Below, piece by piece: positions 3,352-58,644 of a DNA stretch of 64,000 nt. The DNA is from a virus (taxonomy: Duplodnaviria; Caudoviricetes). Location of the stretch: IMG/VR virus record IMGVR_UViG_3300031555_004271, positions 1-64,000 of that record, one strand, 5' to 3'. The notes below the pieces were generated by a model that saw nothing but the letters and a program-made list of their open reading frames with translations, searched no databases and was not told the DNA's origin. Both the position numbers and the translations under genes were made by a program. Numbering within the stretch: position 1 is the first letter of the stretch; the number at the start of each line of letters is the position of its first letter.

Positions 3352-3738
3352 TCAAGTAAAAATATCTCCCTCTTCAGAATATGCTAGATGAAATCTAGTA
3401 TCATCGATATCTGGTAGACGATTGTCACTAGTCATACCAGGTAGAACTACAATACCACCAAACATTCCATCTTCAGTATGGAAGTGTATCTCATTTTCTT
3501 CATCAATTAACTCTTCTTCAAGTACTACTAATTTTAAACCAGTAACATTATTCACATCTTCAATGAACTTCAAAACGTCTTTTTCATTATTTGCAGTTTC
3601 TTCAGTCATGATAGTATAGAAGCCACCTGCATTTACAAATGAATTATGCACATGATAACCAGCTTCTTCTATGACTTTCTGTAAGGTTTCCTTTGGATCT
3701 GCAATATTCAGATCAAATTCGAATTTCTTGTTAAGCAT
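3352..3738 (-). CDS. FDL-family paralog (divergent, acidic)
   Basis: Start moved to MLNKKFEFDLN behind ggagg RBS; C-terminal NRLPDI. Confidence 0.7.
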   Translation of the reverse strand: MLNKKFEFDLNIADPKETLQKVIEEAGYHVHNSFVNAGGFYTIMTEETANNEKDVLKFIEDVNNVTGLKLVVLEEELIDEENEIHFHTEDGMFGGIVVLPGMTSDNRLPDIDDTRFHLAYSEEGDIFT

Positions 3739-4117
3739 AATTGTAATATCCTCCTTCTGTGTTATACCACTTAAAACAATAACCTGAAATGTAATTAGGA
3801 AAGTTATTAAATGTTTCTGATGGTGGTATTTTATATCTATCAAGTATTTGACAGAATTCATAATCGGTATATAGTCCATATTCTTTATGTGTATAACAAA
3901 TACAAACTACATTCAAATTATAAAGACTATAAAAACCTACTGATTTACTGGTAACACATTTAAATCCTAAATCATCTAATAATTCTACTATAGAATGTTT
4001 ATCAAAACAAGTTTCAAATCTAATTGCTATTACTTGATCATTTCTATATGAAAATGACTTAAATACTGATGTATTTAAGTCAAATTCAAATCTTTTTCTA
4101 ATTTTTTCTTTTGTCAT
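3731..4117 (-). CDS. FDL-family paralog
   Basis: MTKEKIRKRFEFDLN...NNFPNY; start at the ATGA overlap. Confidence 0.8.
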   Translation of the reverse strand: MTKEKIRKRFEFDLNTSVFKSFSYRNDQVIAIRFETCFDKHSIVELLDDLGFKCVTSKSVGFYSLYNLNVVCICYTHKEYGLYTDYEFCQILDRYKIPPSETFNNFPNYISGYCFKWYNTEGGYYNYA

Positions 4118-4488
4118 TTTTCTGCCACCGTAAAGTTCCAAGCATCACCTAATTCATAGTATAGGTCATATTTATTAAATATATTTGAAAATTCTTTAAG
4201 AAGTTTGCGACTACACATTCTATAACCATTTAGAGTATGATACAATGGACCTTCAAAGGACATAGACAGAATATGAGGATCAGCTACCCATTCAAAATAT
4301 GTTTTAGGATTTCTATCTTCATATTCGTATAGATTTTCTCCAATTTTCTTACCTTCTACACCTTTCCAATCACTCCAAGATGCCCATGCTTTACCATTAA
4401 AATAAATACAATTATCACCCCAGACTTCTCTTTTTATACACCAGTTATAGATTTCTTTTGCTAACTGTTCTACTTTGACTTTATCCAT
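4114..4488 (-). CDS. Hypothetical protein, 124 aa (not FDL family)
   Basis: ORF coupled to its neighbours. Confidence 0.75.
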   Translation of the reverse strand: MDKVKVEQLAKEIYNWCIKREVWGDNCIYFNGKAWASWSDWKGVEGKKIGENLYEYEDRNPKTYFEWVADPHILSMSFEGPLYHTLNGYRMCSRKLLKEFSNIFNKYDLYYELGDAWNFTVAEK

Positions 4489-4883
4489 CTTTCAACCCTA
4501 CTTTCTATAAGTTTTAGTACTGGAAATCTAGCATAATCCAGTATGTATTCAGGTACTATATTTACATCATTACGATTTGGAAACCAGTGAAATGAGTAAA
4601 AACATTTATGGTATGTTTTGTCATTAGTGCATACACATATACCTTCTGGTTCATTGTATATCTTAATTTTTTCTTTAGAATGTGTATAACCCATTTCTTC
4701 TAATACTGTTATAATTTTCTTATAATTGTGATCAAAATAACGATAGAAAAAGTATTTTGTATTAGGTTTACTTATAGAAATTATAGATTCATGAAAGAAT
4801 CCCATTTCTAAATCGAATTGAAATCTTTTTACTATTTTTTGGTTATTTTCCTTTATAGCTTTTAACTCTTCGATAAATTTCAT
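4470..4883 (-). CDS. FDL-family paralog
   Basis: KRFQFDLEMG...NIVPEY. Confidence 0.85.
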   Translation of the reverse strand: MKFIEELKAIKENNQKIVKRFQFDLEMGFFHESIISISKPNTKYFFYRYFDHNYKKIITVLEEMGYTHSKEKIKIYNEPEGICVCTNDKTYHKCFYSFHWFPNRNDVNIVPEYILDYARFPVLKLIESRVERWIKSK

Positions 4884-4898
4884 ATAGAACTATCCTTC

Positions 4899-5285
4899 TT
4901 AGAAAAACGTTTTATAATCTAGTATATAATCAGGTATCTTATTATAACTAACCATATCATCATAACTAAAATAATAGTATGCAAATTTAAACTCTTTAGT
5001 TTCTGGATATATAACTAATCCAACTGGTGGTGATGGTAAATAAGGAAATAGATTAATATAGTTATGTCTATATTTTAGCTTTTCTAATATTTTGATAAGC
5101 ATTTTTTTATCTTTACGATTTTTGCGACTATTAAATTTGAATCTATATTCTTTGGGAGTAGTAAAAAAGTCAGATATTCCGTATGAATTATCTCTAAATA
5201 ATTCCATTTCTAAATCAAATTGGAATCTTTTTACTATCTTCTGATTATTCACTTTTATAGCTTTTAACTCTTTTATAATCTTCAT
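4899..5285 (-). CDS. FDL-family paralog
   Basis: MKIIKELKAIK...KRFQFDLEME...NKIPDY; N-terminus nearly identical to 4470..4883. Confidence 0.85.
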   Translation of the reverse strand: MKIIKELKAIKVNNQKIVKRFQFDLEMELFRDNSYGISDFFTTPKEYRFKFNSRKNRKDKKMLIKILEKLKYRHNYINLFPYLPSPPVGLVIYPETKEFKFAYYYFSYDDMVSYNKIPDYILDYKTFF

Positions 5286-5764
5286 TTCATCAACCAACTC
5301 ACTATTCTATCCCATAATGTTAGTTTGTATTCTAAAACATAATCTGGAATTTCATTAATCTTAGAACTTGCAAAATCTTTAAATAGTTCAGGTTGTTTCT
5401 CTTTAATCTGCATAAATTTAGCTAGATGATAATTCATATCTTCAAAAACATTACTGTATTTTGAATCAATTATTCTAGATGGAGAACCTTCATGAACGTA
5501 TAACCATGCTCTTTTAGAAGTGGTATTAATTGAAATACCAATAGGTACTTGACTGATATCGTAAAAATCTGTAATTAAATATCCTAATTTTCTTAGGATA
5601 TTTTTAAAAGCTTTTAGTTTTAGGTAATCTCTGTCTTTATGGAATTTAAAACTATACACTCTAGAACCTAATACATTCATTGAATTTAATCGACCAACAT
5701 TTAAATCAAAATCGAATCTTTTTATAATAGTGTCATTCTTTTTCTTTTGATCTTTGATTTTCAT
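5282..5764 (-). CDS. FDL-family paralog with amphipathic C-tail
   Basis: KRFDFDLNVG...NEIPDY..LWDRIVSWLMK; start at ATGA overlap. Confidence 0.8.
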   Translation of the reverse strand: MKIKDQKKKNDTIIKRFDFDLNVGRLNSMNVLGSRVYSFKFHKDRDYLKLKAFKNILRKLGYLITDFYDISQVPIGISINTTSKRAWLYVHEGSPSRIIDSKYSNVFEDMNYHLAKFMQIKEKQPELFKDFASSKINEIPDYVLEYKLTLWDRIVSWLMK

Positions 5765-6270
5765 CAGAAGTACATCCACCATTCTTTTAGTTTTTGATGT
5801 AATGGTAATTTGTAATTAACAATGTAATCTGGTAACTTATAGGTCTTAACATTTCTTTCATTTAGAACATATACGTTATAAGGAATACTATTAGATTTGA
5901 CTAACAAGCCAGGATTACTATTATAGATTTTAGAACACTCATAACTTAACTCATACATATTGAAGTTTGTACTATTAGTAACTATTTTCCTACAACTACT
6001 ACCATATGCATAAAACCAAAATTCTTTAGTATTTTGATTTATAGAAATTCCTTCAAAATTTCTTCTTAAATTATATCTGTATTTTTCAATATCATATTCT
6101 GTACGATAACCTAATTTTTTGAATACTTTGATAAAGAAGTATTCAGAGTTATAATGGCATGATTCATCAAACTCAAAACAATAGATGTCGTCATTTATTA
6201 CTCTTGTAGGTTGAAATAAGATTCCTAAATCAAACTGAAATCTATCTTTAATAGTTGTCTTCTTCCGCAT
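5764..6270 (-). CDS. FDL-family paralog with amphipathic C-tail
   Basis: DRFQFDLG...YKLPDY..LHQKLKEWWMYF; start uncertain (6270-6318). Confidence 0.75.
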   Translation of the reverse strand: MRKKTTIKDRFQFDLGILFQPTRVINDDIYCFEFDESCHYNSEYFFIKVFKKLGYRTEYDIEKYRYNLRRNFEGISINQNTKEFWFYAYGSSCRKIVTNSTNFNMYELSYECSKIYNSNPGLLVKSNSIPYNVYVLNERNVKTYKLPDYIVNYKLPLHQKLKEWWMYF

Positions 6271-7192
6271 ACAACTCACTCGCCTTTTTAGGTTCATTGA
6301 TATTAGTAAAGTAGTCAAATAAGAATTCTTTCTGAGCTTTAGTTAGTCTTTTTATCTCATTCTTTGTAATAGATGGAATTCCTAAACCTGGACTATGAAT
6401 TAGTACCCACCCCTTTTCAGTTAGGAAATCTGCACCACATTCAAATCCAGTTAAATAGTCTTTATCCTTATAATATGCTTCAAACTCTTCTTTATAACGT
6501 GATAAATCAATAAGTTCAGAATCATGGCTACTCATATATCGTTCAGGATCTCTAAGCATAATACAAGAATAAGGCCAACATTGATGATCTCCCCATTCTA
6601 CTTTATAAAATTTGCCACTAGGGTCTAGCCAACCATATTCTGGTTTTACTTTAGTTGCTTTTAGATAAGAATCTAAAATAGGTTCACTAGTATTAAACTC
6701 TGTATTTTTCATAGATGGAGATTTGGCATAATTATACATACACTCAATACTTTCTAGAATGTCTGAAACATAATTGTCTTTTATACTACTTGTATCTAAT
6801 TCACCATTTTCTCTCCAATCCAATAAACAGTCAATGAGATCACTATAAATTCTATTAGTCTTAGCAGATTCTTCCTTGATCTTCTTATTTTCCTGTGTTA
6901 CCTTAGAATACTGAGTGAAGATGTTATCGTTATTCAAATCATCAGTTAGATATACTAGTTCAAATGTACCGTCTCCACTATTACCTCTAAACTCAGCATT
7001 GCCCATTAGAATGTTTTGAACATGAATTTTCAGTTTACCTAATGATTCATCACTACCTTGCATACAAGAAAGTAATAATTCCTCTACAGTCTCATAAGGT
7101 TTATGCTCTATGAAAAACCATTCTTTGGCAATTCTAGTTATGAAACTACCTTCTATACTGAATTGTAATTTCTTAGTCTCCAACGCTATCAT
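6248..7192 (-). CDS. Hypothetical protein, 314 aa
   Basis: Long ORF; YGWLDPSG...GDH motif, function unknown. Confidence 0.8.
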   Translation of the reverse strand: MIALETKKLQFSIEGSFITRIAKEWFFIEHKPYETVEELLLSCMQGSDESLGKLKIHVQNILMGNAEFRGNSGDGTFELVYLTDDLNNDNIFTQYSKVTQENKKIKEESAKTNRIYSDLIDCLLDWRENGELDTSSIKDNYVSDILESIECMYNYAKSPSMKNTEFNTSEPILDSYLKATKVKPEYGWLDPSGKFYKVEWGDHQCWPYSCIMLRDPERYMSSHDSELIDLSRYKEEFEAYYKDKDYLTGFECGADFLTEKGWVLIHSPGLGIPSITKNEIKRLTKAQKEFLFDYFTNINEPKKASELYAEEDNY

Positions 7193-7472
7193 CCTTTACT
7201 TTTAGATTGATTTCATTGATTTTCTTTATAGTTTCATTGTGCTTCTTAAGGTTATTAGTACATTGAAAAATGAGTATTCTATCAGTTACTTGATTGACAG
7301 TTATACCATCCCAGTAGATTTTTTGTCCACATTCATGGCAATACTTTTCTCTTTCCTCATAGTAATGAAATACTGTACCACATTGAGGACACTTAAATAT
7401 GACTTTTCTCATATCTTCCCTACCCCATGCATTGATTCTATCTGCAATGGGTAGTAAACCTTTTTCATTCAT
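7173..7472 (-). CDS. Zinc-ribbon protein, 99 aa
   Basis: CPQCG...CHECGQKIYW. Confidence 0.7.
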   Translation of the reverse strand: MNEKGLLPIADRINAWGREDMRKVIFKCPQCGTVFHYYEEREKYCHECGQKIYWDGITVNQVTDRILIFQCTNNLKKHNETIKKINEINLKVKDDSVGD

Positions 7473-7839
7473 AGTTAAACAAATCCTTTCCTTCTTTTCT
7501 TACTATAGAGTATCCTTCTAATAAGTATTTAGGAATTTCGTTTACATAGTCTTGCATAAAGAACAATACTTCATCTGTTGTATAAAATGTTTTAAGATTG
7601 TGATTTACAATTACACCAGTTAAAGTATAATTAGAAATACTACCTGTTGAACATTTAAGTCTTCTATAGCCTAAATCGTCTAAAGCACGAGTTAGTATTA
7701 AGTAGTCTGGAAAATAGTTTTGATGATTTTCATCTAGAAAGAATATAGTCGAATGTGGTCTATCTGGATCATAAGGTTTAAATACTCCTATTTCTAAGTC
7801 GAATTGAAATCTTTTTAGAATTTCATCATTCTTTTTCAT
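7465..7839 (-). CDS. FDL-family paralog
   Basis: KRFQFDLEIG...NEIPKY. Confidence 0.85.
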   Translation of the reverse strand: MKKNDEILKRFQFDLEIGVFKPYDPDRPHSTIFFLDENHQNYFPDYLILTRALDDLGYRRLKCSTGSISNYTLTGVIVNHNLKTFYTTDEVLFFMQDYVNEIPKYLLEGYSIVRKEGKDLFNYE

Positions 7840-7841
7840 TT

Positions 7842-8180
7842 TTAAACTATCCTCATTAATTCATATAGGTAATCTGGAATTACATTATTTCTAGATGACT
7901 GTTCGCTAATTCCGTCTTCAGCAAACATCCAATACGACTTGTTTTCTAAAAGTATAGAAATTCCATATCGATTATCTAATTCACAAATATCCGTTCTTTC
8001 AAAACCAATCTTGTTAAGTGTATCAGCCAAAAGATATATGTCTCTTTTACTATTAGAATCCATTGTAAAAGGACATATTAGTTTTCCCTTACTTTCATGT
8101 AGTTTATAAGTAATAGTTACAAATCTACCTACATTTATATCAAAACTAAATCGTTTCATAATTTCTTCAATTCTGTCCAT
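7842..8180 (-). CDS. FDL-family paralog
   Basis: KRFSFDINVG...NVIPDY. Confidence 0.85.
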   Translation of the reverse strand: MDRIEEIMKRFSFDINVGRFVTITYKLHESKGKLICPFTMDSNSKRDIYLLADTLNKIGFERTDICELDNRYGISILLENKSYWMFAEDGISEQSSRNNVIPDYLYELMRIV

Positions 8181-8502
8181 TTAAATCCTCCATATATTCA
8201 TACAGATAGTCTGGAATCTCATTATCATCGTAACTATCATCACCATCATCTAATGTATAAAACCAGTATGTTTTATTTGTTAGATTTATAGAAATACCAT
8301 CTGCGTTCTTATAAGTAAAATATGTATTATAGTTCCTTTCGAAACCTAGTTTTTTAAAAATTTTCATTAAAAATTCTAGATCTTCTTTATTGTCATTTTC
8401 AAAAGGACAGATTGTATCACCATCTGTATTACTAATATGTCTAAGTCTTCCAGTCATTACATCAAATTCGAATCTTTTTAGAATTTCTTCATTGTTTTTC
8501 AT
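8167..8502 (-). CDS. FDL-family paralog
   Basis: KRFEFDVMTG...NEIPDY. Confidence 0.85.
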   Translation of the reverse strand: MKNNEEILKRFEFDVMTGRLRHISNTDGDTICPFENDNKEDLEFLMKIFKKLGFERNYNTYFTYKNADGISINLTNKTYWFYTLDDGDDSYDDNEIPDYLYEYMEDLNGQN

Positions 8503-8821
8503 TACCTAATCTCTCCATGTATTCATATAGATATATTGGAAGTTCATTATCAGTATATTTTTCTCCACTAAAACATTCTTGATAGTAACTGTATGTCTTT
8601 TTAGTTATATTGATATTCACACCATCTATTGTCATAGGAACATTCCAGATATTAGTATTTTTAAATCCTAGATTACTAAAAATCTCAGCTATAAAAATTA
8701 CATCCTCACTATTATCTCTTTCAAAAGGACAAATTATGAATCCAAATGCAGAAGTATATGATCTAAGTCTTCCAGTCATTACATCGAATTCGAATCTTTT
8801 TAAAATTTCATCTCTAGTCAT
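8489..8821 (-). CDS. FDL-family paralog
   Basis: KRFEFDVMTG...NELPIY. Confidence 0.85.
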   Translation of the reverse strand: MTRDEILKRFEFDVMTGRLRSYTSAFGFIICPFERDNSEDVIFIAEIFSNLGFKNTNIWNVPMTIDGVNINITKKTYSYYQECFSGEKYTDNELPIYLYEYMERLGNEKQ

Positions 8822-9132
8822 GTCATTCCCTCTTTGAAATACTCTGGTAGTTCATTATCAAAGTCAGAAAATTCTTCTGATTCATCATCCTGTTCAAAGA
8901 ACCAATATTCCATATCTTCTTTACTTACTGAAACTCCATCATAGTCATCAAATGAATACAAACTACAATAATGATCTTTCTTAAAACCTAGTATTTCTAA
9001 AATAGCTATAAAGAATTTTCTTGTAGGTGGATTACCGACTATAAAAGCACAAGTATCTTCATCTGGAATATTTTTAAATCTACCCATTTCTAGGTCAAAT
9101 TTGAATCTCTTAGCTATTTCTTCATTCGTCAT
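8818..9132 (-). CDS. FDL-family paralog
   Basis: KRFKFDLEMG...NELPEY. Confidence 0.85.
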   Translation of the reverse strand: MTNEEIAKRFKFDLEMGRFKNIPDEDTCAFIVGNPPTRKFFIAILEILGFKKDHYCSLYSFDDYDGVSVSKEDMEYWFFEQDDESEEFSDFDNELPEYFKEGMT

Positions 9133-9448
9133 ATAGTTTCCATTCCTTTAAATAGTCCGGTATTTTAATGCAATACTTATCAATATCAGGATTCAGTTCT
9201 TGCCAAGTCCAAAAATTCTCAGCACTTTTATCAATTGATATACCATCAGCAAACCTAGCTTTTAGTAAATCTTGAGGGATATAGTAATCTAATTTCCTAA
9301 GAATACTTTTAAAAACCTTAAATTCTCGTTCTCTATCATTTAATACTTCACTGAATTTGAATATACTTAGATGAGAGTTTAAACTAGAACTGAAAAGACC
9401 CATTTCTAAATCGAATTGGAATCTTTTTAGAATTTCTTCATTCGTCAT
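9122..9448 (-). CDS. FDL-family paralog
   Basis: Start moved to MTNEEILKRFQFDLEMG behind gaaagg; IKIPDY. Confidence 0.85.
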   Translation of the reverse strand: MTNEEILKRFQFDLEMGLFSSSLNSHLSIFKFSEVLNDREREFKVFKSILRKLDYYIPQDLLKARFADGISIDKSAENFWTWQELNPDIDKYCIKIPDYLKEWKLYDE

Positions 9449-9452
9449 TATG

Positions 9453-9803
9453 TTACCTTTCTTGATACTGGTAATCCAATAGATACTCTGGATAGCTATT
9501 ATGTACAAGTTTTCTACCTGCTGAATATGTAGTATATGAGTTAGATAATCTAAAATTTTTCTTGTTTGTATTTATAATTATTTCTGCTATATTCATAAAA
9601 TTACGAGGAGTACTGTGATCTTCATATCCTAGTTTCTTTAAAGCCATCATTAACTTTAGAGTTTTATCACTGATAGAATGATCAAACTGTTTGTAGTGAT
9701 TCTCATCAACGATATCAATTATACATAATATATTGAAGTTAGATTTAAATAATCCTAAATCTAGATCGAATTGGAATCTTTTTAGAATTTCTTCATTTGT
9801 CAT
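9453..9803 (-). CDS. FDL-family paralog
   Basis: Start moved to MTNEEILKRFQFDLDLG behind gggag; NSYPEY. Confidence 0.85.
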   Translation of the reverse strand: MTNEEILKRFQFDLDLGLFKSNFNILCIIDIVDENHYKQFDHSISDKTLKLMMALKKLGYEDHSTPRNFMNIAEIIINTNKKNFRLSNSYTTYSAGRKLVHNSYPEYLLDYQYQER

Positions 9804-10134
9804 TATAATTCTCCCTAACATATTCAGTTATATAAATTGGAATGTTATTTGTAGGATAAGTATCATTTGGATACAAGTAACTATACAGTTTATATCTTAA
9901 ATCTACTATAAGTCCTGCAATAATTTTTGAAGTAGCAAAGAATTGATTAGCTGGATACGATCTATATCCTAATATAGTTAGGATTTCTGCAAGAACATGA
10001 ATTTCTAATTTATTGAAGGTTGAAAATGAACATAATGCATCACCATGACTCGTTATAAATAGATGCATATCCATATCAAATTGAAATCTTTTTATTATCT
10101 TTTCATCAATAGTAATATAAGATTGATCCATCAA
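9793..10134 (-). CDS. FDL-family paralog
   Basis: KRFQFDMDMH...NNIPIY. Confidence 0.85.
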   Translation of the reverse strand: MMDQSYITIDEKIIKRFQFDMDMHLFITSHGDALCSFSTFNKLEIHVLAEILTILGYRSYPANQFFATSKIIAGLIVDLRYKLYSYLYPNDTYPTNNIPIYITEYVRENYNDK

Positions 10135-10522
10135 CTCTCAACGGCTCCTTTTTCTCAACAGTATATCCACAATCACTATATTCTATGTCGTACCTTGATA
10201 GCATATACTCAATAGCTGGTTTAAAGTATTCTGGTATTTCATTTTTATCCTCTAATGTAAAGAAGCTTAATCCATCAACAACCATAAAATCATTGTTTAA
10301 TCTATCAATTGCTATACCTTCTGGATGTGGAATTTCTATAAATGTCGAATTTTTATAATTCATACAACTTTCTAAGAGTTCTATAAAGAACACTATTTCA
10401 TAAGGTTTATCAGTTCTAAAAATTACTAAATTCTGATCGCCATTTTTAGAAGGATTAAATCTACCCATTTCTAGATCGAATTTGAATTTCTTAACTATAT
10501 CTAAATTGTAAACTTCATTCAT
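10106..10522 (-). CDS. FDL-family paralog
   Basis: KKFKFDLEMG...NEIPEY. Confidence 0.85.
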   Translation of the reverse strand: MNEVYNLDIVKKFKFDLEMGRFNPSKNGDQNLVIFRTDKPYEIVFFIELLESCMNYKNSTFIEIPHPEGIAIDRLNNDFMVVDGLSFFTLEDKNEIPEYFKPAIEYMLSRYDIEYSDCGYTVEKKEPLRVDGSILYYY

Positions 10523-10863
10523 TTTAATTCCACCTTTATTCCTTGGAGATATGAAGGTATTCCATTTGTTAATGATATTGTATATTCACTTAAATGCGTA
10601 ATAAAACTATATCGTTTTCTATCAATATCCATTAGAATTAGTAATGGAAAATTATCTGTAAGGAAAAAATGTTTTATATCACTACAAAATATAGTATCAT
10701 ATCTAATGTAGTTCAAAATATAAGTAACTAATAGAAATTCATCTCTATTACATACTCTGATAACACCAAAGTTATACAAATCAGTCCTTATATAATCATT
10801 TTTAAATATACCCATTTCTAAATCAAATTGAAATCTTTTAACGATATCATAGCTAACTTCCAT
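10519..10863 (-). CDS. FDL-family paralog
   Basis: KRFQFDLEMG...NGIPSY. Confidence 0.85.
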   Translation of the reverse strand: MEVSYDIVKRFQFDLEMGIFKNDYIRTDLYNFGVIRVCNRDEFLLVTYILNYIRYDTIFCSDIKHFFLTDNFPLLILMDIDRKRYSFITHLSEYTISLTNGIPSYLQGIKVELK

Positions 10864-11176
10864 TTTCTAAATACTCCTTTATGTAATCAGGAATTTCATT
10901 ACATATTTTATAATCATCTTCATTAACATATACTGTAAGCAGTGTATTATCAGTTGTATCTATAAGTATACTATTTGAACATCCAAATCTATTTTTTGGA
11001 TTAACATACCAACTAAAGCCAATTGAAATGAGTAAATTAGAAAAAGCTTTTAAGTCATTCAAGTTTCCTTTAAATGTATAAGCATTGTTAACATATTCAT
11101 TAAATCTACCCATTCCTAGATCGAATTTAAATTTTTTAATAGGATTTGATATGATATCACTTGGCATTAGCAGCAT
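10853..11176 (-). CDS. FDL-family paralog
   Basis: KKFKFDLGMG...NEIPDY. Confidence 0.85.
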   Translation of the reverse strand: MLLMPSDIISNPIKKFKFDLGMGRFNEYVNNAYTFKGNLNDLKAFSNLLISIGFSWYVNPKNRFGCSNSILIDTTDNTLLTVYVNEDDYKICNEIPDYIKEYLENGS

Positions 11177-11826: not shown

Positions 11827-11856
11827 AGTATTAAAACCTCCTATTCCTTATAAAAA

Positions 11857-11870
11857 GAATATATAGATAA
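11857..11870 (-). promoter_or_regulatory. Putative early (virion RNAP) promoter
   Basis: minus strand ttatctatatattc, upstream of array A; motif recurs before early units. Confidence 0.55.
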
Positions 11871-16893: not shown

Positions 16894-16904
16894 ATCCTTT
16901 CTAA

Positions 16905-17420: not shown

Positions 17421-17438
17421 TATAAGATTCTCCCTTTG

Positions 17439-51396: not shown

Positions 51397-53328
51397 TTAA
51401 AAACTGATAAAGGTGCTATAATACTCTTTGTTATTATATTGCATGAGCTTAATACCTAGACTCTCTAATAGCAAATTACCAACACGAATGTTATCATCAA
51501 CGATATCTTCATAGTTGATAAATGGAATTAGTTCTTTAGGAATCTTAGTAACTGACTTTGGCATACAAATAGCAGTCATACCATAATGAGCTAAGTTTTC
51601 ATCATTGAAAATTTCACTCTGAATTGTCTCAAAGAACTCAGTTCCATAGATAGGTTCCAGATCAGTAATGTCATTGATCTTTAACTTCAATAGATTGACT
51701 TTAGCAGGTGTTTGGATTGTGTTATTAGGATATAACTTATTCCAAATAATAGAACCTCTAGCACTAGCTACTTGATATGCATTTTTATAAGAATCGAAAT
51801 CATTACACTTACCAGGAGTTAAAAATGTAATCTCACCATTCTTTAGAGAATTTCTAATCTCATCTTCAAATGCTTTAAAGATTCCTAAAATCTCAGCTAT
51901 GTTAATAACTGGATCGTTTAGAATCTTTTTCTCAATCATATCTGTGAAAACTTTTCTAGTACGATTGTTAACATTTGCCTTCTTAATAGACATACCCTTC
52001 ATGTCTATTTTTCTTTTGATATTACCTTCTTGTAATTCTAACTGTCCTGTGTACTGCTTCTTGTTTCGTGTAAGCATTAGTCGGGAGTAGAGGAACTCGC
52101 TCTTCATGTTGATAATTGGCTGCTTAACTTCAGTAACATTACAATTTTCTGTTAAACGATTCAATTCTTTCTGAATGAATTTTGCTAGAAATAGTATAGC
52201 TGAGTTAGGAATACTATACATCAACTTATCTGAATCTGGTAGATGTATAGTCTTGTGTACCCATTTCACATACGAGTCTAAAGCGATAAAGTTACTGTCA
52301 GTGTCGACTGTCAGTATAGTACTTCTTTCCATACTAAATGCTCTTTCAGCTCTATTCCAGTACTGATAGTCATAGACTACAAACTCTTCTAATAAACTCC
52401 ACAACTTATCTAGATTCTCTTTAGTTTCATCATTAATCTCATTAGGATCAATAATCTCAAATTGTAGAATATTCTCTAGATATTGCTTTACTTTTTCATT
52501 TTCTAAGAATTCATAGATGTTGTTCTTGTAATAGACACGATTTACAGACTCTTTATCCAATCCATTAATCAATGTCTTTAAAGCAGATTTCTCTTCTTTA
52601 GTTAGTTCAACGTCCATTATTTCATACAATTTCTCTAACAAATCTTGCTTTTTCTTTACATTTTCTTTATCTAGAACTTTTAGAATTTTCATCTCACTAT
52701 TGATGTTTTCTAGACAGTTATTGATATAAATGCAAAGATCACTGAAATTATCATAATGAACATTATTACTAAGGAAAGACTCGAAAGCTAGAATGGAAGT
52801 CGTAATTATGGAGTATCCCGTGTATGTTACAGAAGCCGGAATAACAGGATTATAGAACTGACTGTTCTTCTCACCAGTAGCACCATAATAGGAGTTATTC
52901 AATAGCTTAAATGTCTTCTGCATCATTTCATAGAATGACTCTTTAGCTACATCACCTTCATTAAGTGCTGCGAACTGAGCTTTCTTAGCAACTTTTCTTT
53001 CAGACATCAACCAGCTAACAAAGTCAGCATTTAAATTAATTGCCTTTTCATGTTGCTTGAACATAACTCCATAGCCAGTCATAATAGGTTTCTTATTCTC
53101 ATAGAAATCTAAGACATTTAATAATGTATAATCATTCTCTACATTTTCATAGTTGTTTCTAATAGTTAAATTCTTTTCATTTGAGTTAAGTTTCTGATTT
53201 TCTTCTATTTGTTTATCTATTAGTTCTTCTAAAGTTTCTCTAGGAACATCTGGTTTTAGTTTTGTTAGAGTTGCTAACATATCTCGCTTATACTTTTGTA
53301 CGAAAGTACTGTTCTGAATATCAGACAT
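51397..53328 (-). CDS. Family B DNA polymerase, C-terminal (motif B/C) subunit of a split enzyme
   Basis: ERKVAKK...KLLNNSYYG, TVDTDS, KKQY, DMKG..IKK; no DxxSLYPS or exonuclease motifs seen. Confidence 0.85.
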   Translation of the reverse strand: MSDIQNSTFVQKYKRDMLATLTKLKPDVPRETLEELIDKQIEENQKLNSNEKNLTIRNNYENVENDYTLLNVLDFYENKKPIMTGYGVMFKQHEKAINLNADFVSWLMSERKVAKKAQFAALNEGDVAKESFYEMMQKTFKLLNNSYYGATGEKNSQFYNPVIPASVTYTGYSIITTSILAFESFLSNNVHYDNFSDLCIYINNCLENINSEMKILKVLDKENVKKKQDLLEKLYEIMDVELTKEEKSALKTLINGLDKESVNRVYYKNNIYEFLENEKVKQYLENILQFEIIDPNEINDETKENLDKLWSLLEEFVVYDYQYWNRAERAFSMERSTILTVDTDSNFIALDSYVKWVHKTIHLPDSDKLMYSIPNSAILFLAKFIQKELNRLTENCNVTEVKQPIINMKSEFLYSRLMLTRNKKQYTGQLELQEGNIKRKIDMKGMSIKKANVNNRTRKVFTDMIEKKILNDPVINIAEILGIFKAFEDEIRNSLKNGEITFLTPGKCNDFDSYKNAYQVASARGSIIWNKLYPNNTIQTPAKVNLLKLKINDITDLEPIYGTEFFETIQSEIFNDENLAHYGMTAICMPKSVTKIPKELIPFINYEDIVDDNIRVGNLLLESLGIKLMQYNNKEYYSTFISF

Positions 53329-53396: not shown

Positions 53397-53744
53397 TTAA
53401 TTTAACTTATACTCTTTTACATATTCTGGAATATCAATCATTCTACTACATAAACCAGGAAATTCACTTAAATAAGCGTTGTCAAATTTTCTTACAGCAT
53501 AAGAACTATCATTCATATCTATAGTAATATATGCTTTATTTTCCATTAATCCCTTGATATAAGGATCTTTATACATAAATACTCTATCAGGTTCATTATC
53601 ACTACGCCCAAGATTATCTAAAATTTTCAGAAGTTTAGGTGAATCTTCGTTAGTTTTGAAGTTTATAACTTTACTTGAATCTTTATTAAATACTCCCATT
53701 TCTAAGTCAAACATAAACTTTCTTTCAATGTCTCTATTTGTCAT
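53397..53744 (-). CDS. FDL-family paralog (array C)
   Basis: RKFMFDLEMG...IDIPEY. Confidence 0.85.
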   Translation of the reverse strand: MTNRDIERKFMFDLEMGVFNKDSSKVINFKTNEDSPKLLKILDNLGRSDNEPDRVFMYKDPYIKGLMENKAYITIDMNDSSYAVRKFDNAYLSEFPGLCSRMIDIPEYVKEYKLN

Positions 53745-54082
53745 ATTTGATACTCCTTTATATAGTTTGGAATTCTATTCCATCTTACTAATAATAGTTC
53801 TTTATTACTTGTAAATCTTCCAGTACAATCGCCTAAACCAAATACTTTACCTACTGGATCTATCCATACATAAGCTTCACCTTTATACAACCAATTTTTT
53901 ACTTTATCTATATCTTCACGTTCATTAAGTTCTAAATACCTATTATATCCGATATTGTATAAAAGATTGTATAACTTAAAGGCTTTTTTACCTTTTCTGA
54001 AGTATATAGTATGAAAAAATAGATCAAATCTTCCCATATTCAAATCAAATAAGAATCTTCTTTCAATTTCTTCATTAGTCAT
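53741..54082 (-). CDS. FDL-family paralog (array C)
   Basis: RRFLFDLNMG...NRIPNY. Confidence 0.85.
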   Translation of the reverse strand: MTNEEIERRFLFDLNMGRFDLFFHTIYFRKGKKAFKLYNLLYNIGYNRYLELNEREDIDKVKNWLYKGEAYVWIDPVGKVFGLGDCTGRFTSNKELLLVRWNRIPNYIKEYQI

Positions 54083-54420
54083 AATTTACACCCCATATTC
54101 AATTTAGTGTATTCCAATAGATAATCTGGTATCTCATTAAAGTATTTAAAAGCTGCTTCAGTACGTACACTAATATGACCAGTAGTATATGAGTTATATT
54201 CGTTTGAAAACCATATATACGAAGTTGAATATTCATTAGGAAAATGCTTTATTGCTTCATCAGAACCATCTCTAAATCCTATATTGGTTAATAGGATAAA
54301 CAGATTCTTATATTTGAGTGTGTCTCTAGTTTTGAAGAAAAACATACCAGCATCATCTGTTATAAATCTTCTCATATTCATATCAAACTTGAATTTCTTT
54401 TCAATCTGTTCATTAGTCAT
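54079..54420 (-). CDS. FDL-family paralog (array C)
   Basis: KKFKFDMNMR...NEIPDY. Confidence 0.85.
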   Translation of the reverse strand: MTNEQIEKKFKFDMNMRRFITDDAGMFFFKTRDTLKYKNLFILLTNIGFRDGSDEAIKHFPNEYSTSYIWFSNEYNSYTTGHISVRTEAAFKYFNEIPDYLLEYTKLNMGCKL

Positions 54421-54758
54421 AGTTGATAGTCCTTTATATATTTTGGTATTTGATTTACATTTGGATAATCACATTTATAAGTATATCTTTCAGATTTCAT
54501 AAATTCCTTTTTTTCAGGAAATAAATTTACATAGAATGTTCTAGGATTTTTATTCCGTTTCCATTCTTTTAATATACCTTTCTCTAAAAGTCCTTTATAA
54601 TAGTCTTTATAGCCAATATCTTCTAAACACTTAAGAAATTTATCATAATTAACATTTCCTTGAAAACTTATTCTAATACAATTTCTATTATCTTCTCTTT
54701 TGAATCTATCAAAATTTAAGTCAAATTCTAATCTTTTTCTAATTTCTTCATTAGTCAT
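54417..54758 (-). CDS. FDL-family paralog (array C)
   Basis: KRLEFDLNFD...NQIPKY. Confidence 0.85.
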   Translation of the reverse strand: MTNEEIRKRLEFDLNFDRFKREDNRNCIRISFQGNVNYDKFLKCLEDIGYKDYYKGLLEKGILKEWKRNKNPRTFYVNLFPEKKEFMKSERYTYKCDYPNVNQIPKYIKDYQL

Positions 54759-54764
54759 CTAATT

Positions 54765-55091
54765 TCACTCCTTTATAGATTCCCTTATAAAATCTGGAAA
54801 TCGATTTTTAGGTGTTGATTTACTATCAAAATATGGAGCAGATGGTACGATTCTATAGTTTCTTCTATCTAAATAGACCTTTATAGTATTACTATTTTTA
54901 TATTGACCACTTACATGTCTATATCCAATTCTGTCTAAAACCTTTTTTAGTTCGATTAACATACTATATGATTCACGATGATCTAAAACAAAATACACTA
55001 TTCTATGATTCTCAGTACGCTTTACTTTATAAATTCCAAGTTCTAGTTCTAGATCGAATTTGAATCTTCTAACAACATTTTCATCAATCAT
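54765..55091 (-). CDS. FDL-family paralog (array C)
   Basis: RRFKFDLELELG...NRFPDF. Confidence 0.85.
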   Translation of the reverse strand: MIDENVVRRFKFDLELELGIYKVKRTENHRIVYFVLDHRESYSMLIELKKVLDRIGYRHVSGQYKNSNTIKVYLDRRNYRIVPSAPYFDSKSTPKNRFPDFIRESIKE

Positions 55092-55399
55092 ATTTTATAC
55101 CTTTTCACATAGTCTGGTACTTTATTGTAATACCAATCAGGATTTAAATATTCGTTATTTCTTATATTGTACTTTTTATTACGAGTACTTATTGTTACAA
55201 TTATCATATTTCTTGGAGATAGGTGATATTCGTTTCTTTCAAAACCTAAATTATCCAGAATACTTATTAGTCTAAATCTAGATTTATCTCTTTTTCTTTC
55301 TATAAATCTAATTACTGTTGGATAATCACCATTTATACATCTAAATACTCCCATATTCAAATCAAATAGGAAACGTTTTTCTATTTCTTCATTTGTCAT
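55088..55399 (-). CDS. FDL-family paralog (array C)
   Basis: KRFLFDLNMG...NKVPDY. Confidence 0.85.
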   Translation of the reverse strand: MTNEEIEKRFLFDLNMGVFRCINGDYPTVIRFIERKRDKSRFRLISILDNLGFERNEYHLSPRNMIIVTISTRNKKYNIRNNEYLNPDWYYNKVPDYVKRYKI

Positions 55400-55414
55400 A
55401 ATTCTAATACCTCT

Positions 55415-55696
55415 TTAATAAAGCCTAAAGTCCTTTATATATTCTGGTGCTTCATAACTTCTATAAGTCTTATCTTTCATTCCATAAGTGAAAGTTCTAT
55501 TTACCTTATTTATGAGAATGTATTCTATATTTTCATAATCATGAGAATATATTGATGTATAAGAATAACCCCATAATTGTACTATTCTCATTATTCTTCT
55601 AGTAATTCTATATGGGGCATAAAATATTACTGAATCACCACTATATTTGATTTGTAAATCAAAATCAAATCTTTTCATAATTTCTGTATTAGACAT
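55415..55696 (-). CDS. FDL-family paralog (array C)
   Basis: KRFDFDLQ...YEAPEY. Confidence 0.85.
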   Translation of the reverse strand: MSNTEIMKRFDFDLQIKYSGDSVIFYAPYRITRRIMRIVQLWGYSYTSIYSHDYENIEYILINKVNRTFTYGMKDKTYRSYEAPEYIKDFRLY

Positions 55697-55704
55697 AACA
55701 TCAC

Positions 55705-56031
55705 CTAAAAATTATCACGTATTGAATATTCTCTAACATATTCTGGTATAGGATTTGTTACTAAACCAGATACTTTAGTGTATCTGCTATAAATGGAATA
55801 TGTCTTATTTGATATTATAATTCCAATGTATACAAAATGATTCATACTCGTTCTTGAGGCATAATTACTACGACATTCAAAACCTGCATAATTTAACAAT
55901 TCACATAAAGGATTGCATTCAAAAATACTTTTAGTTTCAAACCATATATGAAAATCATCTGAACTTAATTTTTTAAATAATCCCATTTCTAAATCGAAAA
56001 AGAATCTTTTTTCTATTTCTTTATTTGTCAT
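55705..56031 (-). CDS. FDL-family paralog (array C)
   Basis: KRFFFDLEMG...NPIPEY. Confidence 0.85.
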   Translation of the reverse strand: MTNKEIEKRFFFDLEMGLFKKLSSDDFHIWFETKSIFECNPLCELLNYAGFECRSNYASRTSMNHFVYIGIIISNKTYSIYSRYTKVSGLVTNPIPEYVREYSIRDNF

Positions 56032-56036
56032 ATACT

Positions 56037-56373
56037 CTAATCACTATCCTTTGTTAGAATGTACTCTGGAATTGGATTTTCATAATAGTTATATAATCTA
56101 GTATAATCATCATAGTAGCTATAAAGTTTACTAGTTGTATTTATAAGTATACCATCTCTAGCTAAGACTAAAACACTTATATCTTCATAGAAACCTATAA
56201 CCAATCTGATTTAAAAAGTTTTTCATCTCTTTCATTTTAGCAAAGTTCTTATTATCAAATGGATAATCTTCCTCTTTAAATACTATAATTTTTCCATATT
56301 TAGTTTCGTGACCTTTTATTAAACCTAATTCTATATCAAATAAGAATCTTTTTTCTAATTCTGTATTACTCAT
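56037..56373 (-). pseudogene. Frameshifted FDL-family paralog
   Basis: 62-aa ORF stops at 56185; the +1 frame continues FYEDISV...NPIPEYILTKDSD to TAG at 56037; total 337 nt = 3n+1. Confidence 0.75.
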
Positions 56374-56744
56374 ACATAGAATCCTCCTATAGTGTATTTC
56401 TTACAATTATGAGATATTACATAATCTTTGATATACTCTGGTAATTCAGAAATCTCTTTACTATGAGGTAAACTACGAATGCTTATATTATCATAACATT
56501 GAAAGTATTTTTCTCCATTATATATCTTGATAATTCTCTTAGATTTTCCATACTCATAGTATCCATAAACATTCTCATCTAAAAATGAGAATTTCTGTGA
56601 ATATCCATTGAATGCAAGTATGGTTTCTATATCTGAAATGTTATCATAAAAGTCATAGAAAACTATAGAACCATCGTCATTGGTTTTAAATACTCCCATA
56701 TTTAAATCAAATAAAAATCTTCTATCTTTTTCTTCTTTAGTCAT
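56370..56744 (-). CDS. FDL-family paralog (array C)
   Basis: RRFLFDLNMG...SELPEY. Confidence 0.85.
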   Translation of the reverse strand: MTKEEKDRRFLFDLNMGVFKTNDDGSIVFYDFYDNISDIETILAFNGYSQKFSFLDENVYGYYEYGKSKRIIKIYNGEKYFQCYDNISIRSLPHSKEISELPEYIKDYVISHNCKKYTIGGFYV

Positions 56745-57088
56745 TTACTATCAACTTCTTTCTTACTTATATCGTATCGTTTTATGTAATTCGGTATGGT
56801 GTTATAATAATTTTCATAACAATGCAATCGATCAACTATATGAAATTCTTTATTTTCAATGGATATATTTATACTGAATCTTTTATTAAAGTTTCTTAAA
56901 TCTTTCCTAGTGTATTTATATCCTTTTACAGTAACTTCCTTAAAACCATTATTTTCCAATAATCTTACTAGTCTTATGATATTTCTATCACATTTAAATG
57001 CACACAATTTATCGTAATGACCATATGGTTTAAATATACCCATATGAAGATCGAATAAGAATTTTTTCTCTATTTTTTCACTATCCAT
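56741..57088 (-). CDS. FDL-family paralog (array C)
   Basis: KKFLFDLHMG...NTIPNY. Confidence 0.85.
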   Translation of the reverse strand: MDSEKIEKKFLFDLHMGIFKPYGHYDKLCAFKCDRNIIRLVRLLENNGFKEVTVKGYKYTRKDLRNFNKRFSINISIENKEFHIVDRLHCYENYYNTIPNYIKRYDISKKEVDSK

Positions 57089-57099
57089 TTATAATACTC

Positions 57100-57441
57100 C
57101 TAAAGAGGTTTTTTCATGTAGTAGTTATTTACATAATCTGGAATTTCATTTACTAATCCTTTTGATATATAGAATGTGTGTATTGTAACATTGTTATTAG
57201 AGTAATGGAAAGAGTATTTTTTATCTAACCTATCAATTTCCAATATATCCTCATTACCACAGTAGTAATTGTATTCAGATTCTTTATAACCTAACTCTTT
57301 TAATATATTTGAGATCTTAAATAAGGATTCACTAGAACCCTTAAAAATCAAAAATTCCTTACCATATATTTTCTTAGTCTTAAAAATACCTACATCTAAA
57401 TCAAATTGGAATTTCTTTTCTATCTGTTTATAGTCTGTCAT
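57100..57441 (-). CDS. FDL-family paralog (array C)
   Basis: KKFQFDLDVG...NEIPDY. Confidence 0.85.
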   Translation of the reverse strand: MTDYKQIEKKFQFDLDVGIFKTKKIYGKEFLIFKGSSESLFKISNILKELGYKESEYNYYCGNEDILEIDRLDKKYSFHYSNNNVTIHTFYISKGLVNEIPDYVNNYYMKKPL

Positions 57442-57785
57442 GTTTTATAATCCTTTACATAATCTGGAAGTAAGTATATAGATTTATCCATACGCACATC
57501 ACTTTCATACTTTGTTGCAATAAACAATTTCAATTCATTATCTATACCAATTTTAATATATTTATAGTTGGTATATGGATAATCTACAGGTTGTCTAGTA
57601 TAATAATCAGTATCATGACCACAAAGATCTTTATAACCATTCTTTTTTAAAATAGTTATTACTATTAGTACATTCTGTATAGTATCACCAAAAGTTACAT
57701 CATTACGCAAATCTTTTTGATATACAGTATTTAAATCAAATATGAATCTTTTCTCTATTCTTTCATTACTTTGTCTATCATACAT
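57438..57785 (-). CDS. FDL-family paralog (array C)
   Basis: KRFIFDLN...LLPDY. Confidence 0.85.
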   Translation of the reverse strand: MYDRQSNERIEKRFIFDLNTVYQKDLRNDVTFGDTIQNVLIVITILKKNGYKDLCGHDTDYYTRQPVDYPYTNYKYIKIGIDNELKLFIATKYESDVRMDKSIYLLPDYVKDYKT

Positions 57786-58105
57786 TTGTAATACTCCTTT
57801 TCATCAAATTCGTCAATGTAATCTGGTATTTCATTAACAGTGTCATTAAAATGTCTAGCAAATATTCCATATGGTGACATTATAACATAATTTCTAGATT
57901 CCTTATAGATAGCAATTGGACTATCCCAATATATTGGAAAACCACCCTTGTATTCTAATGTGATTAGTACTTTTACAAGTTTTCTATTATCTTTTGCTCT
58001 AAAAATATAGTATCCACCCTCATTAACATTTGTATTTATAGTAAACTTGAATAAACCCATTTCTAAATCGAATTCGAATCTTTTTAAGATTTCTTCATTA
58101 GACAT
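57755..58105 (-). CDS. FDL-family paralog (array C)
   Basis: MSNEEILKRFEFDLEMG...NEIPDY; start moved to the internal Met. Confidence 0.85.
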   Translation of the reverse strand: MSNEEILKRFEFDLEMGLFKFTINTNVNEGGYYIFRAKDNRKLVKVLITLEYKGGFPIYWDSPIAIYKESRNYVIMSPYGIFARHFNDTVNEIPDYIDEFDEKEYYKCMIDKVMKE

Positions 58106-58644
58106 TTTAACACATCCTTTATACAATCAAATACAGTATACTTATACTCACTTACATATTCTGGAATTTCATTAATAGAGTTTTCCTCAAATTTACCAGT
58201 TGATCCACATAAATTAACCCAAGTATGAAATTTCTTTTCATCCTTATCTATACATAAAAATACTAATGTAATATAGTTTCTATTTTTATTATCTTTAACA
58301 AAATACTTATCATGATTAAGATTTATTTCATTTACAAAGTCTAATTCTTCTAGAATTTTTATTAACTTTAAATATAGCTTTTTATTATATGGAGGAATAG
58401 AAAATAGTATTTCTCTTGTAGGTCTATCTTCAACTTCACTAATATACATATTACCATTTGCATATGTTACAACTGTTCTACTACCATATGCAAAACTACT
58501 ATTACCAAAAGTAACAGTATTAGCACTATATGCATAGCTTCCATTATGATGATTATTTAAAATAGATTTTTCTTTAATAGATTCTTTGAATCTACATACT
58601 TCTAGATCAAATTGAAATCTTTTCAAAATTTCTTGATTAGTCAT
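58084..58644 (-). CDS. FDL-family paralog, long form (first of array C)
   Basis: KRFQFDLEVC...NEIPEY; insert with SNTVTFGNSSFAYGS repeats; amphipathic C-tail. Confidence 0.85.
   Translation of the reverse strand: MTNQEILKRFQFDLEVCRFKESIKEKSILNNHHNGSYAYSANTVTFGNSSFAYGSRTVVTYANGNMYISEVEDRPTREILFSIPPYNKKLYLKLIKILEELDFVNEINLNHDKYFVKDNKNRNYITLVFLCIDKDEKKFHTWVNLCGSTGKFEENSINEIPEYVSEYKYTVFDCIKDVLKCLMKKS

Follow-up and report, generated by a model that had tools for sequence, protein, structure and literature searches.

Two tandem arrays of a hypervariable small-protein family in an AR9/PBS1-like jumbo phage, a candidate repertoire of early host-interaction proteins

A 64,000-nucleotide stretch of viral DNA (positions 1 to 64,000 of IMG/VR record IMGVR_UViG_3300031555_004271, hereafter the window) raises the question of what the many small minus-strand genes that occupy so much of it are, and what they may do for the virus that carries them. 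The window makes up the first 64 kb of a virus contig of 85,817 bp whose G+C content is 25-34%. The small genes lie in three minus-strand arrays: array A at 3352-11826 with 19 genes, array B at 16351-19872 with 10 genes, and array C at 53397-58644 with 15 genes. These are the positions and counts that an initial annotation had proposed, and the arrays cover 17.2 kb, or 27% of the window, close to the quarter it had estimated. That annotation had treated all of the genes as one family of about 44. Arrays A and C do hold a single family, with 34 members (the A/C family), but the 10 genes of array B form a separate sequence family. The reading we favor, with a probability of roughly 45%, is that arrays A and C are a clade-restricted multigene family of small soluble alpha/beta proteins that would act as an early repertoire of host-interaction or anti-defence binders.

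The A/C family consists of 32 intact typical members, one divergent member (3352-3738), and one frameshifted member (56037-56373). A hidden Markov model (HMM) of the family matches 33 open reading frames (ORFs) with E values of 1e-14 to 2e-33 and the ORF 3352-3879 with an E value of 5e-7; these scores are partly circular, because the model was built from those same ORFs. A jackhmmer search with one member as the query (Z=1e5) recovers all 33 motif-bearing A/C ORFs of the window, 18 in array A and 15 in array C, as well as 18 ORFs of a complete relative (G001) and 13 of a third phage, and nothing else. The genes of array A are as follows, from first to last, with E values from the A/C HMM and lengths in amino acids (aa).

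11470-11826, minus strand: member, 118 aa, first gene of array A, E 8.6e-26, recovered by jackhmmer
11157-11483, minus strand: member, 108 aa, E 2.7e-25
10853-11167, minus strand: member, 104 aa from the refined start, E 6e-24
10519-10863, minus strand: member, 114 aa, E 4.1e-23
10106-10522, minus strand: member, 138 aa, with a C-terminal extension, E 1.4e-26
9793-10131, minus strand: member, 112 aa, E 3e-25
9453-9803, minus strand: member, 116 aa, E 1.4e-27
9122-9448, minus strand: member, 108 aa, E 8.3e-29
8818-9132, minus strand: member, 104 aa, E 1e-28
8489-8821, minus strand: member, 110 aa, E 1.2e-28
8167-8502, minus strand: member, 111 aa, modelled by AlphaFold2 (AF2), E 2e-33
7842-8180, minus strand: member, 112 aa, E 5.4e-26
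7465-7839, minus strand: member, 124 aa, E 3.8e-26
7173-7472, minus strand: embedded non-member, 99 aa, two CxxC pairs (zinc-ribbon type), phrog_10714 and phrog_16351, ortholog at the same place in G001 (53%)
6248-7192, minus strand: embedded non-member, 314 aa, phrog_31560 (E 1e-51), ortholog at the same place in G001 (47%)
5764-6270, minus strand: member, 168 aa, long insertion before the C-terminal motif, E 1.6e-20
5282-5764, minus strand: member, 160 aa, long insertion, E 3.3e-25
4899-5285, minus strand: member, 128 aa, E 7.8e-26
4470-4883, minus strand: member, 137 aa, E 2.1e-29
4114-4488, minus strand: embedded non-member, 124 aa, phrog_35453 (E 1.4e-12), G001 ortholog (67%)
3731-4117, minus strand: member, 128 aa, E 9.7e-28
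3352-3738, minus strand: divergent member, 128 aa from the ATG at 3738, K-K-F-E-F-D-L kept and I-P-x-Y end absent, E 5e-7, G001 ortholog (42%)

The PHROGs matched by the three embedded non-members are of unknown function. The true start of the ORF 3352-3879 is probably at 3738, where a strong GGAGG lies 8-12 nt upstream. The genes of array C are listed in the same way.

58084-58644, minus strand: member, 186 aa, insertion of ~60 aa after the N-terminal helix, first gene of array C, E 1.1e-21
57755-58105, minus strand: member, 116 aa, E 3.9e-25
57438-57785, minus strand: member, 115 aa, E 2.8e-20
57100-57441, minus strand: member, 113 aa, E 6.5e-26
56741-57088, minus strand: member, 115 aa, E 9.7e-28
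56370-56744, minus strand: member, 124 aa, E 6.2e-25
56037-56373, minus strand: frameshifted full-length member, N-terminal 62 aa at 56185-56373, remainder including P-I-P-E-Y in another frame from ~56210 to the stop at 56037-56039
55705-56031, minus strand: member, 108 aa, E 1.1e-29
55415-55696, minus strand: member, 93 aa, the shortest, E 4.7e-18
55088-55399, minus strand: member, 103 aa, E 2.3e-28
54765-55091, minus strand: member, 108 aa, the sole member with a clear ortholog elsewhere (a gene of relative G002, 57%; Shimodaira-Hasegawa-like approximate likelihood ratio test (SH-aLRT) 100), E 5.6e-22
54417-54758, minus strand: member, 113 aa, E 1.3e-24
54079-54420, minus strand: member, 113 aa, E 4.7e-25
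53741-54082, minus strand: member, 113 aa, E 1.2e-23
53397-53744, minus strand: member, 115 aa, last gene of array C, 68 nt before the DNA polymerase gene, E 4.1e-25

There is no homopolymer run at the frameshift in 56037-56373; pseudogenisation, recoding or a fault in the assembly could each explain this copy. Array C also contains a 61-nt DNA repeat with 15 occurrences. Members are typically 103-138 aa long, and paralogs in the window are typically 27-40% identical, the closest pair (8489-8821 and 8167-8502) reaching 53%. Their isoelectric points (pI) range from 4.1 to 10, about half being acidic (pI 4.1-5.9), and none has a membrane-type hydrophobic segment (top 19-aa Kyte-Doolittle mean 1.39). 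A profile search of 1.84 billion representative proteins returned 219 sequences with E<=1e-3, 149 of them with E<=1e-10. Of the top 150 matches, 130 come from outside the window, and the ten that were looked up are all unnamed metagenomic proteins. Identical proteins are present on several independent assemblies. No fused or longer forms of the family were found, which is weak evidence.

The N-terminal, central and C-terminal motifs described in the initial annotation hold across 172 family sequences, in which ~25 positions, mostly hydrophobic, are conserved in >=60-99%. The N-terminal block, K-R-F-x-F-D-L-x-M-G, contains F11 (99%), F13 (98%) and D14 (95%), and the conserved positions around it are I7, K9, R10, F11, F13, D14, L15, M17, G18 and F20; residues 2-6 (M-T-N-E-E) are also conserved. 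The central element is formed by F34 plus L..L..LG(Y/F), and the conserved positions in this part of the protein are F34, then L45, I48, L49, L52, G53 and Y/F54, then I70, I72, K77 and Y/F79. The C-terminal block, N-x-I-P-x-Y, includes N94, I96, P97 (100%), Y99 (99%), I100 and Y103. Between these anchors, conservation falls below 1 bit and indels are concentrated, with insertions of up to ~60 aa.

What holds such variable proteins together? An AF2 model of the member 8167-8502, built from the family alignment, has a mean predicted local distance difference test (pLDDT) score of 88.6 and a predicted template modelling score (pTM) of 0.79. The model has the order helix-strand(s)-helix-hairpin-helix, with the terminal helices at residues 4-17 and 98-109. 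The invariant termini had been thought to dock on one shared partner. This idea is not borne out by the model, in which both termini are integral helices of the fold, or by the DNA, in which the C-terminal motif is partly a ribosome-binding site (RBS). Within arrays A and C, 21 of 28 junctions overlap by 1-31 nt, ten of them as a 4-nt ATGA, and at about a dozen of the junctions the K/E-E-Y codons of the upstream C-terminal motif spell out the AAGGAG that serves the downstream gene as its Shine-Dalgarno sequence. Part of the C-terminal conservation is therefore a constraint at the DNA level. The constant ends look to be mainly the core of the predicted scaffold, with the RBS of the next gene added at the C-terminus.

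Array B contains the following genes, with A/C HMM scores where these were obtained.

19447-19872, minus strand: B-family member, 141 aa, first gene of array B
19143-19442, minus strand: B-family member, 99 aa, A/C HMM E 0.018
18837-19124, minus strand: B-family member, 95 aa, A/C HMM E 0.0046
18572-18856, minus strand: B-family member, 94 aa
18310-18579, minus strand: B-family member, 89 aa, modelled by AF2, no fold match
18000-18293, minus strand: B-family member, 97 aa
17744-18016, minus strand: B-family member, 90 aa
17439-17747, minus strand: B-family member, 102 aa, A/C HMM E 0.012
16905-17420, minus strand: long B-type member, 171 aa, G001 counterpart 28% identical
16351-16893, minus strand: long B-type member, 180 aa, G001 ortholog 43% identical

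The A/C HMM reaches a best E value of 0.005 in array B, and iterative jackhmmer searches never bridged the two families. Comparisons of A/C and B profiles by hhalign, with small and enlarged alignments, give a probability of 31-48% (P 2e-4 to 5e-4), and the alignment is confined to the N-terminal 37-39 columns. The AF2 model of the B member 18310-18579 (pLDDT 91.9) has a helix-strand-helix order followed by four strands. Both predicted folds open with a helix, a strand, a helix and a beta-hairpin, after which the A/C fold continues with a helix and the B fold with a second hairpin. Because the HMM and hhalign links are weak, jackhmmer finds none and the predicted C-terminal halves differ, we count 34 plus 10 genes. 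On sequence and model comparison, array B is not demonstrably of the same family as A/C, and a distant relationship possibly exists. One A/C-type member in the polymerase-side array of G001 (L012:7844-8209) scores E 7.7e-4 with the B-family HMM and is a possible intermediate between the families.

The initial annotation had not recognised the fold, and structure prediction followed by Foldseek gives no known fold for either model; the best E value against the PDB is 0.67 for both. Searches of Pfam, NCBIfam and PHROGs with 32 A/C members one by one returned scattered noise only, one member per family, and no known enzymatic family was matched. Known anti-defence families likewise gave no consistent match in Pfam, NCBIfam, PHROGs or PDB sequences. 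A tblastn search of one member against 50,697 phage records found no match. In PDB sequence profile searches, the best E value is 0.6 for A/C, and the B family has a spurious match to enterotoxin B at E 0.1. The VIA wide structural search has best Z values of 3.5 (RemA) for A/C and 5.0 (2guk, of unknown function) for B, and all Z values are below 5.1, a range rated uninformative by the search tool. In a protein atlas, there was nothing usable for one member and only noise-level matches for another.

In BFVD, small uncharacterised proteins from phages of Leuconostoc and Acinetobacter give the best E value, 7e-3. The nearest predicted structures to the A/C model there are from Acinetobacter phage Aristophanes (four adjacent accessions) and Leuconostoc phage Ln-9 (two), with E values of 7e-3 to 0.7 and template modelling scores of 0.4-0.6. 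These neighbors raise the possibility of small paralog clusters with a similar fold in other phages.

Two named candidates were considered, and the first of them was set aside. The LAGLIDADG fold accounts for 8 among the 50 matches listed by the VIA wide search, at Z values of only 2.5-3.1, and for none by Foldseek. Its motif logic does not fit: such a helix would have small residues for packing and a conserved metal-binding acid at its end, and the A/C helix carries the bulky residues F11, F13, L15 and M17, an E follows L15 in only 56% of sequences, and there is no Pfam LAGLIDADG match. The AR9/PBS1-like character of the carriers and the helix-strand-helix-four-strand order of the B model brought up the second candidate, the DNA-mimic inhibitor Ugi of PBS1/PBS2. 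Ugi is absent from the PDB profile matches at E<=10 and from the listed rows of the fold searches, although no direct pairwise comparison was made; the members are not uniformly acidic (pI 4.1-10).

The weak structural matches bear on the proposal that the members are sequence-specific nucleic-acid-binding regulators with paralog-specific phage or host sites, such as RegA-like translational repressors, small transcription factors or DNA-architecture proteins. The best rows for both models are nucleic-acid-binding folds (for A/C, the RemA and LAGLIDADG rows given above; for B, R3H, Smr and KhpB with Z values of 3.9-4.7), but these all lie in the uninformative range. The array on the polymerase side stands directly upstream of the DNA polymerase gene, like regA in T4, and RegA is the nearest named cluster in the protein-atlas feature search. 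However, the score of 0.75 is within the stated noise range of that search, hhalign against T4 RegA (PF01818) gives a probability of 0.5% (P 0.11), and none of the 32 members matches PF01818 (Pfam Translat_reg) at E<=1; the RegA lead was dropped after the hhalign comparison. The conserved K9, R10 and K77 would suit a nucleic-acid binder, whereas the acidic pI of about half of the members would be unusual for one. Taken together, we consider such regulators quite unlikely.

Noise-level Pfam matches also touch on another proposal, in which the members are immunity-type proteins that neutralise toxins (polymorphic toxins, bacteriocins, or toxins of abortive-infection or toxin-antitoxin systems). 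Small soluble alpha/beta proteins with hypervariable surfaces, encoded in tandem arrays, parallel the immunity-gene arrays of bacterial polymorphic-toxin loci, and two members match Imm6 and Imm51 with E values of 0.06 and 0.14. These matches are single, below threshold and to different families, and no toxin-like gene is associated with the arrays. In practice, this proposal overlaps the anti-defence reading and is not distinguishable from it here; as a separate explanation, it seems to us highly improbable.

When would the A/C genes be expressed? The early promoters of AR9 follow the consensus AAATATATATTAT-6N-G (PMC5312081). When up to 2 mismatches are allowed, that exact consensus is not enriched in the window (28 found and 41 expected). 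A variant motif that resembles it, AWHTATATATWHT, occurs 11 times compared with 2.9 expected, and none of 100 shuffles reaches 11. Early-type promoters had been proposed ahead of all three arrays. Motifs of this kind do precede arrays A and C, but none was recognised ahead of array B.

11856-11868, minus strand: early-promoter-like motif ATCTATATATTCT, 30 nt upstream of the first gene of array A
58686-58698, minus strand: early-promoter-like motif AAATATATATAAT, 42 nt upstream of the first gene of array C

From these motifs, the A/C genes are probably expressed in the first minutes of infection. There is no terminator-like site in array C or between array C and the polymerase gene, and array C is probably co-transcribed with that gene.

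The early-type motifs are relevant to the possibility that the members are packaged in the virion and injected, with the constant N-terminal ~20 residues serving as a signal for capsid targeting or processing, in the manner of the internal protein (IP) locus of T4-like phages. The N-terminus, including residues 2-6, is strikingly conserved for proteins that are otherwise hypervariable, and the locus is hyperplastic between close relatives. AR9-like phages do inject proteins, for example the virion RNA polymerase (PMC5312081). Packaged proteins should however be late, and the arrays carry the early-type motif and not the late AACA-6N-TA/G. Moreover, the N-terminal helix is predicted to be integral to the fold, with a pLDDT of 86-92 over residues 1-30, and no protease-site pattern was identified. 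We therefore give this possibility little credence and regard it as very unlikely.

Judged from sequence, the carrier is an uncultured AR9/PBS1-like jumbo phage. Its DNA polymerase gene serves as the anchor for comparison with relatives, which were taken as a graded series of polymerase-anchored loci from IMG/VR.

51397-53328, minus strand: catalytic subunit of a B-family DNA polymerase, not a member of the arrays, 40% identical to the PBS1/AR9 polymerase and 88% to that of G001; directly downstream of array C in all three family-carrying phages

A 755-aa protein of von Willebrand factor A (vWA) type at 774-3041 is 42% identical to AR9 gp067. AR9 and PBS1 (Takahashivirus) are the nearest cultured relatives, and no closer cultured phage was found. 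They share with the carrier intron-split multisubunit RNA polymerase genes, and their AT-rich early promoter motif is of the carrier's type (PMC5312081). In contrast to the carrier, AR9 has zero members of the A/C or B family, and the arrays are absent ahead of its polymerase and vWA genes. The record G001 (319,626 bp, CheckV 100% complete) is colinear with the entire window. The term jumbo phage (>200 kb) relies on this colinear complete genome of 319.6 kb, the carrier's own contig being an 85.8-kb fragment. The two arrays, on the polymerase side and the vWA side, are distributed among the relatives as follows.

Window contig (85.8 kb, partial): 34 A/C members, 15 on the polymerase side and 19 on the vWA side; 10 B members
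G001 (319.6 kb, complete), polymerase 88% identical: 19 A/C members, 9 on the polymerase side and 9 on the vWA side plus 1 singleton; about 11 B members
G002 (299 kb, complete), polymerase 77% identical: 14 A/C members, 13 on the polymerase side plus 1 singleton and 0 on the vWA side; 0-1 B members
Relatives with polymerase identity of 46% or less: 0 A/C members, 0 in both arrays; 0 B members in those searched (G005, G006, AR9)

The A/C family is thus confined to close relatives, at the same two genome positions. At polymerase identities of 46% or less, the HMM finds no A/C member, including in two complete records (263 kb and 227 kb) and in AR9, BpSp, SA1 and LPJP1.

Within this clade, the members diverge much faster than their surroundings. 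In the colinear 64 kb of G001, the best match of an A/C member has a median identity of 31.6% (n=29, maximum 40%), compared with 66.9% for the other genes (n=45). The non-members embedded in array A keep their places in G001 at 47-67% identity. For 6 of the 10 array B genes, there is no match at all in G001. Across the three phages, the best cross-genome identity of members has a median of 32%, with one clear ortholog pair (57%). In a quick maximum-likelihood tree the members radiate in a star-like pattern, and their terminal branches have a median length of 1.74 substitutions per site. The tree clusters by array position and not by genome (5 label changes compared with 21.7 in shuffles; 0/200), which argues that both arrays already existed before these phages diverged and have since evolved largely in place. 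Frequent exchange between the arrays would not fit this clustering. The sole sign of recent gene conversion or duplication in any array is an 89-nt stretch with 91% identity in the polymerase-side array of G002 (L015:7547-7634 and 8177-8264). For an estimate of dN/dS, the orthologs are saturated (~32% identity), and the closer records are 99.97-100% identical.

Are these genes simply decaying? The arrays might be a residue of tandem duplication, filler in the genome of a jumbo phage with head-full packaging that drifts under relaxed constraint. Precedent for this was suggested by the arrays of >30 genes in phages G and 121Q (PMC5646251), and the very long branches, the copy-number differences among relatives, the one frameshifted copy and the complete relative that entirely lacks the vWA-side array would all be expected. 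However, 33 of 34 members have open frames of 93-186 codons, and a random frame of 110 codons stays open with a probability of ~7e-6. The ~25 conserved positions, the confident AF2 models, the preserved translational coupling and Shine-Dalgarno sites, and array positions kept since before the split of the three lineages all speak against filler. As the frames are intact and the core is conserved, the family is therefore not in neutral decay, and we judge the filler explanation very improbable.

The picture of a diversified family on a common scaffold, already put forward in the initial annotation, withstands these analyses: the AF2 model is confident, the segments between anchors are variable, the divergence is ~2x that of neighboring genes, and the ORFs stay open. 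On the repertoire reading that we favor, the fixed scaffold would comprise the N-terminal helix, a strand with F at its end, a second helix that closes with L-G-Y/F, a beta-hairpin, and a C-terminal helix starting at the invariant proline. The segments between these anchors would be free to vary in sequence, length and charge. The genes would be read as two translationally coupled, operon-like runs, each behind a motif that resembles the early promoter used by the virion RNA polymerase of AR9. The arrays themselves would be old and would have kept their positions, and local duplication, loss and very fast divergence would keep renewing their gene content. The products may form a repertoire of binders against variable host or competitor targets, used for host takeover or counter-defence, with recognition by the variable loops and surfaces.

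The anti-defence part of this reading draws on the early-promoter motifs, the hypervariability and the turnover of copy number. Several points weigh against the reading. Fast divergence alone does not tell positive selection apart from relaxed constraint. Neither the homology searches (Pfam, NCBIfam, PHROGs and PDB sequences) nor the fold searches gave a match that indicates any activity. The conserved polar residues K9, R10, D14, K77 and N94 and residues 2-6 are not obviously explained by the scaffold; given the polar residues, a common site, ligand, partner or signal shared by members is possible. Array B lacks a recognised promoter, the nearest minus-strand motif (20382-20394) being 500 nt off with a hairpin directly after it. 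A host search with a 579-aa protein (34735-36474) gave no close bacterial relative.

How does the A/C family compare with known systems? The jumbo phages G and 121Q contain tandem arrays of >30 'very similar' genes (Hua et al. 2017, PMC5646251), and phage G has a zinc-ribbon expansion of ~35 copies (Iyer et al. 2021, PMC7824862), proposed to encode small transcription factors or DNA-architecture proteins (PMC7824862). In these cases, as in ours, a single small-protein family of a jumbo phage has undergone a lineage-specific tandem expansion to tens of copies. In contrast, the A/C family has no zinc ribbon and no Pfam or PHROG match, and its copies are deeply diverged (<=53% within the genome, typically ~30%) rather than very similar. 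They also lie in two arrays whose positions are conserved and whose gene content changes from one close relative to the next. As far as sequence comparison goes, the A/C case appears new in its protein family, its depth of divergence and its two positionally conserved arrays with turnover, while tandem expansion in jumbo phages is itself already known.

Two further systems offer partial parallels. In T4-like phages, the IP locus encodes polymorphic anti-restriction proteins behind a short conserved N-terminal targeting sequence, as with IPI* against GmrSD. A conserved short N-terminus on polymorphic small proteins, and a locus that differs between close relatives, are common to both. The T4 proteins, however, are late, packaged and proteolytically processed, whereas the A/C genes have an early-type motif, an N-terminus within the predicted fold, and far more copies. 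In eukaryotic viruses, the MGF110, MGF360 and MGF505 multigene families of African swine fever virus (ASFV) and the Bcl-2-like and ankyrin families of poxviruses are tandem paralogs with roles in host range and immune evasion. Like the A/C family, they vary in copy number between strains and conserve a fold at very low identity, and they provide a functional model by analogy. The proteins and hosts are unrelated, and the links to immune evasion are experimental there, whereas the A/C family is known from sequence and models.

A bolder form of the repertoire reading would make the A/C family the phage counterpart of these eukaryotic-virus families. It would be a new small fold used as a binder scaffold, early in infection each paralog would neutralise, through its hypervariable loops, its own target among the immune or housekeeping proteins of the host, and the repertoire would be reshuffled as hosts change; array B would be an older offshoot with a replaced C-terminus. 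By analogy this is conceivable, and we hold it to be unlikely in this full form.

Other genes of the window accompany the arrays. The gene of an RNA polymerase beta-type subunit is present as two ORFs, 14553-15398 and 15848-16297 (plus strand), ~450 nt apart, both of which match phrog_2962. A small heat-shock protein of Hsp20/alpha-crystallin type (12029-12409, plus strand; Pfam PF00011, E 1.6e-5) is divergent from array A and upstream of it. Between arrays A and B lies a paralogous pair of phrog_3532 (12483-13445 and 13467-14408, minus strand; 320 and 313 aa), likewise paired in G001 with 43-46% identity. Beyond array B, the minus-strand motif at 20382-20394 has a 16-bp hairpin within 20 nt, which on the plus strand, with a T-run, looks like the terminator of the gene 19952-20296, and a second early-promoter-like motif (20433-20445, plus strand) faces the opposite way. 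Three genes outside the families are also strongly diverged from G001 (32-39% compared with the regional median of 67%), namely 44210-45784 (minus strand), 62291-63527 (plus strand) and 58742-59179 (plus strand), and they may be further fast-evolving genes of the host interface.

The dual coding of a protein motif and the RBS of the next gene calls for caution when "conserved termini" are read in tightly packed arrays. Fast-evolving, multi-copy small proteins are usually the mark of host-interface genes in viruses. If the A/C family does act in counter-defence or host takeover, its members would amount to dozens of naturally occurring variants of a single small, stable scaffold, with which new immune targets in bacteria could be sought. 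The family would then also illustrate in a phage the repertoire strategy that large eukaryotic viruses are known to use.

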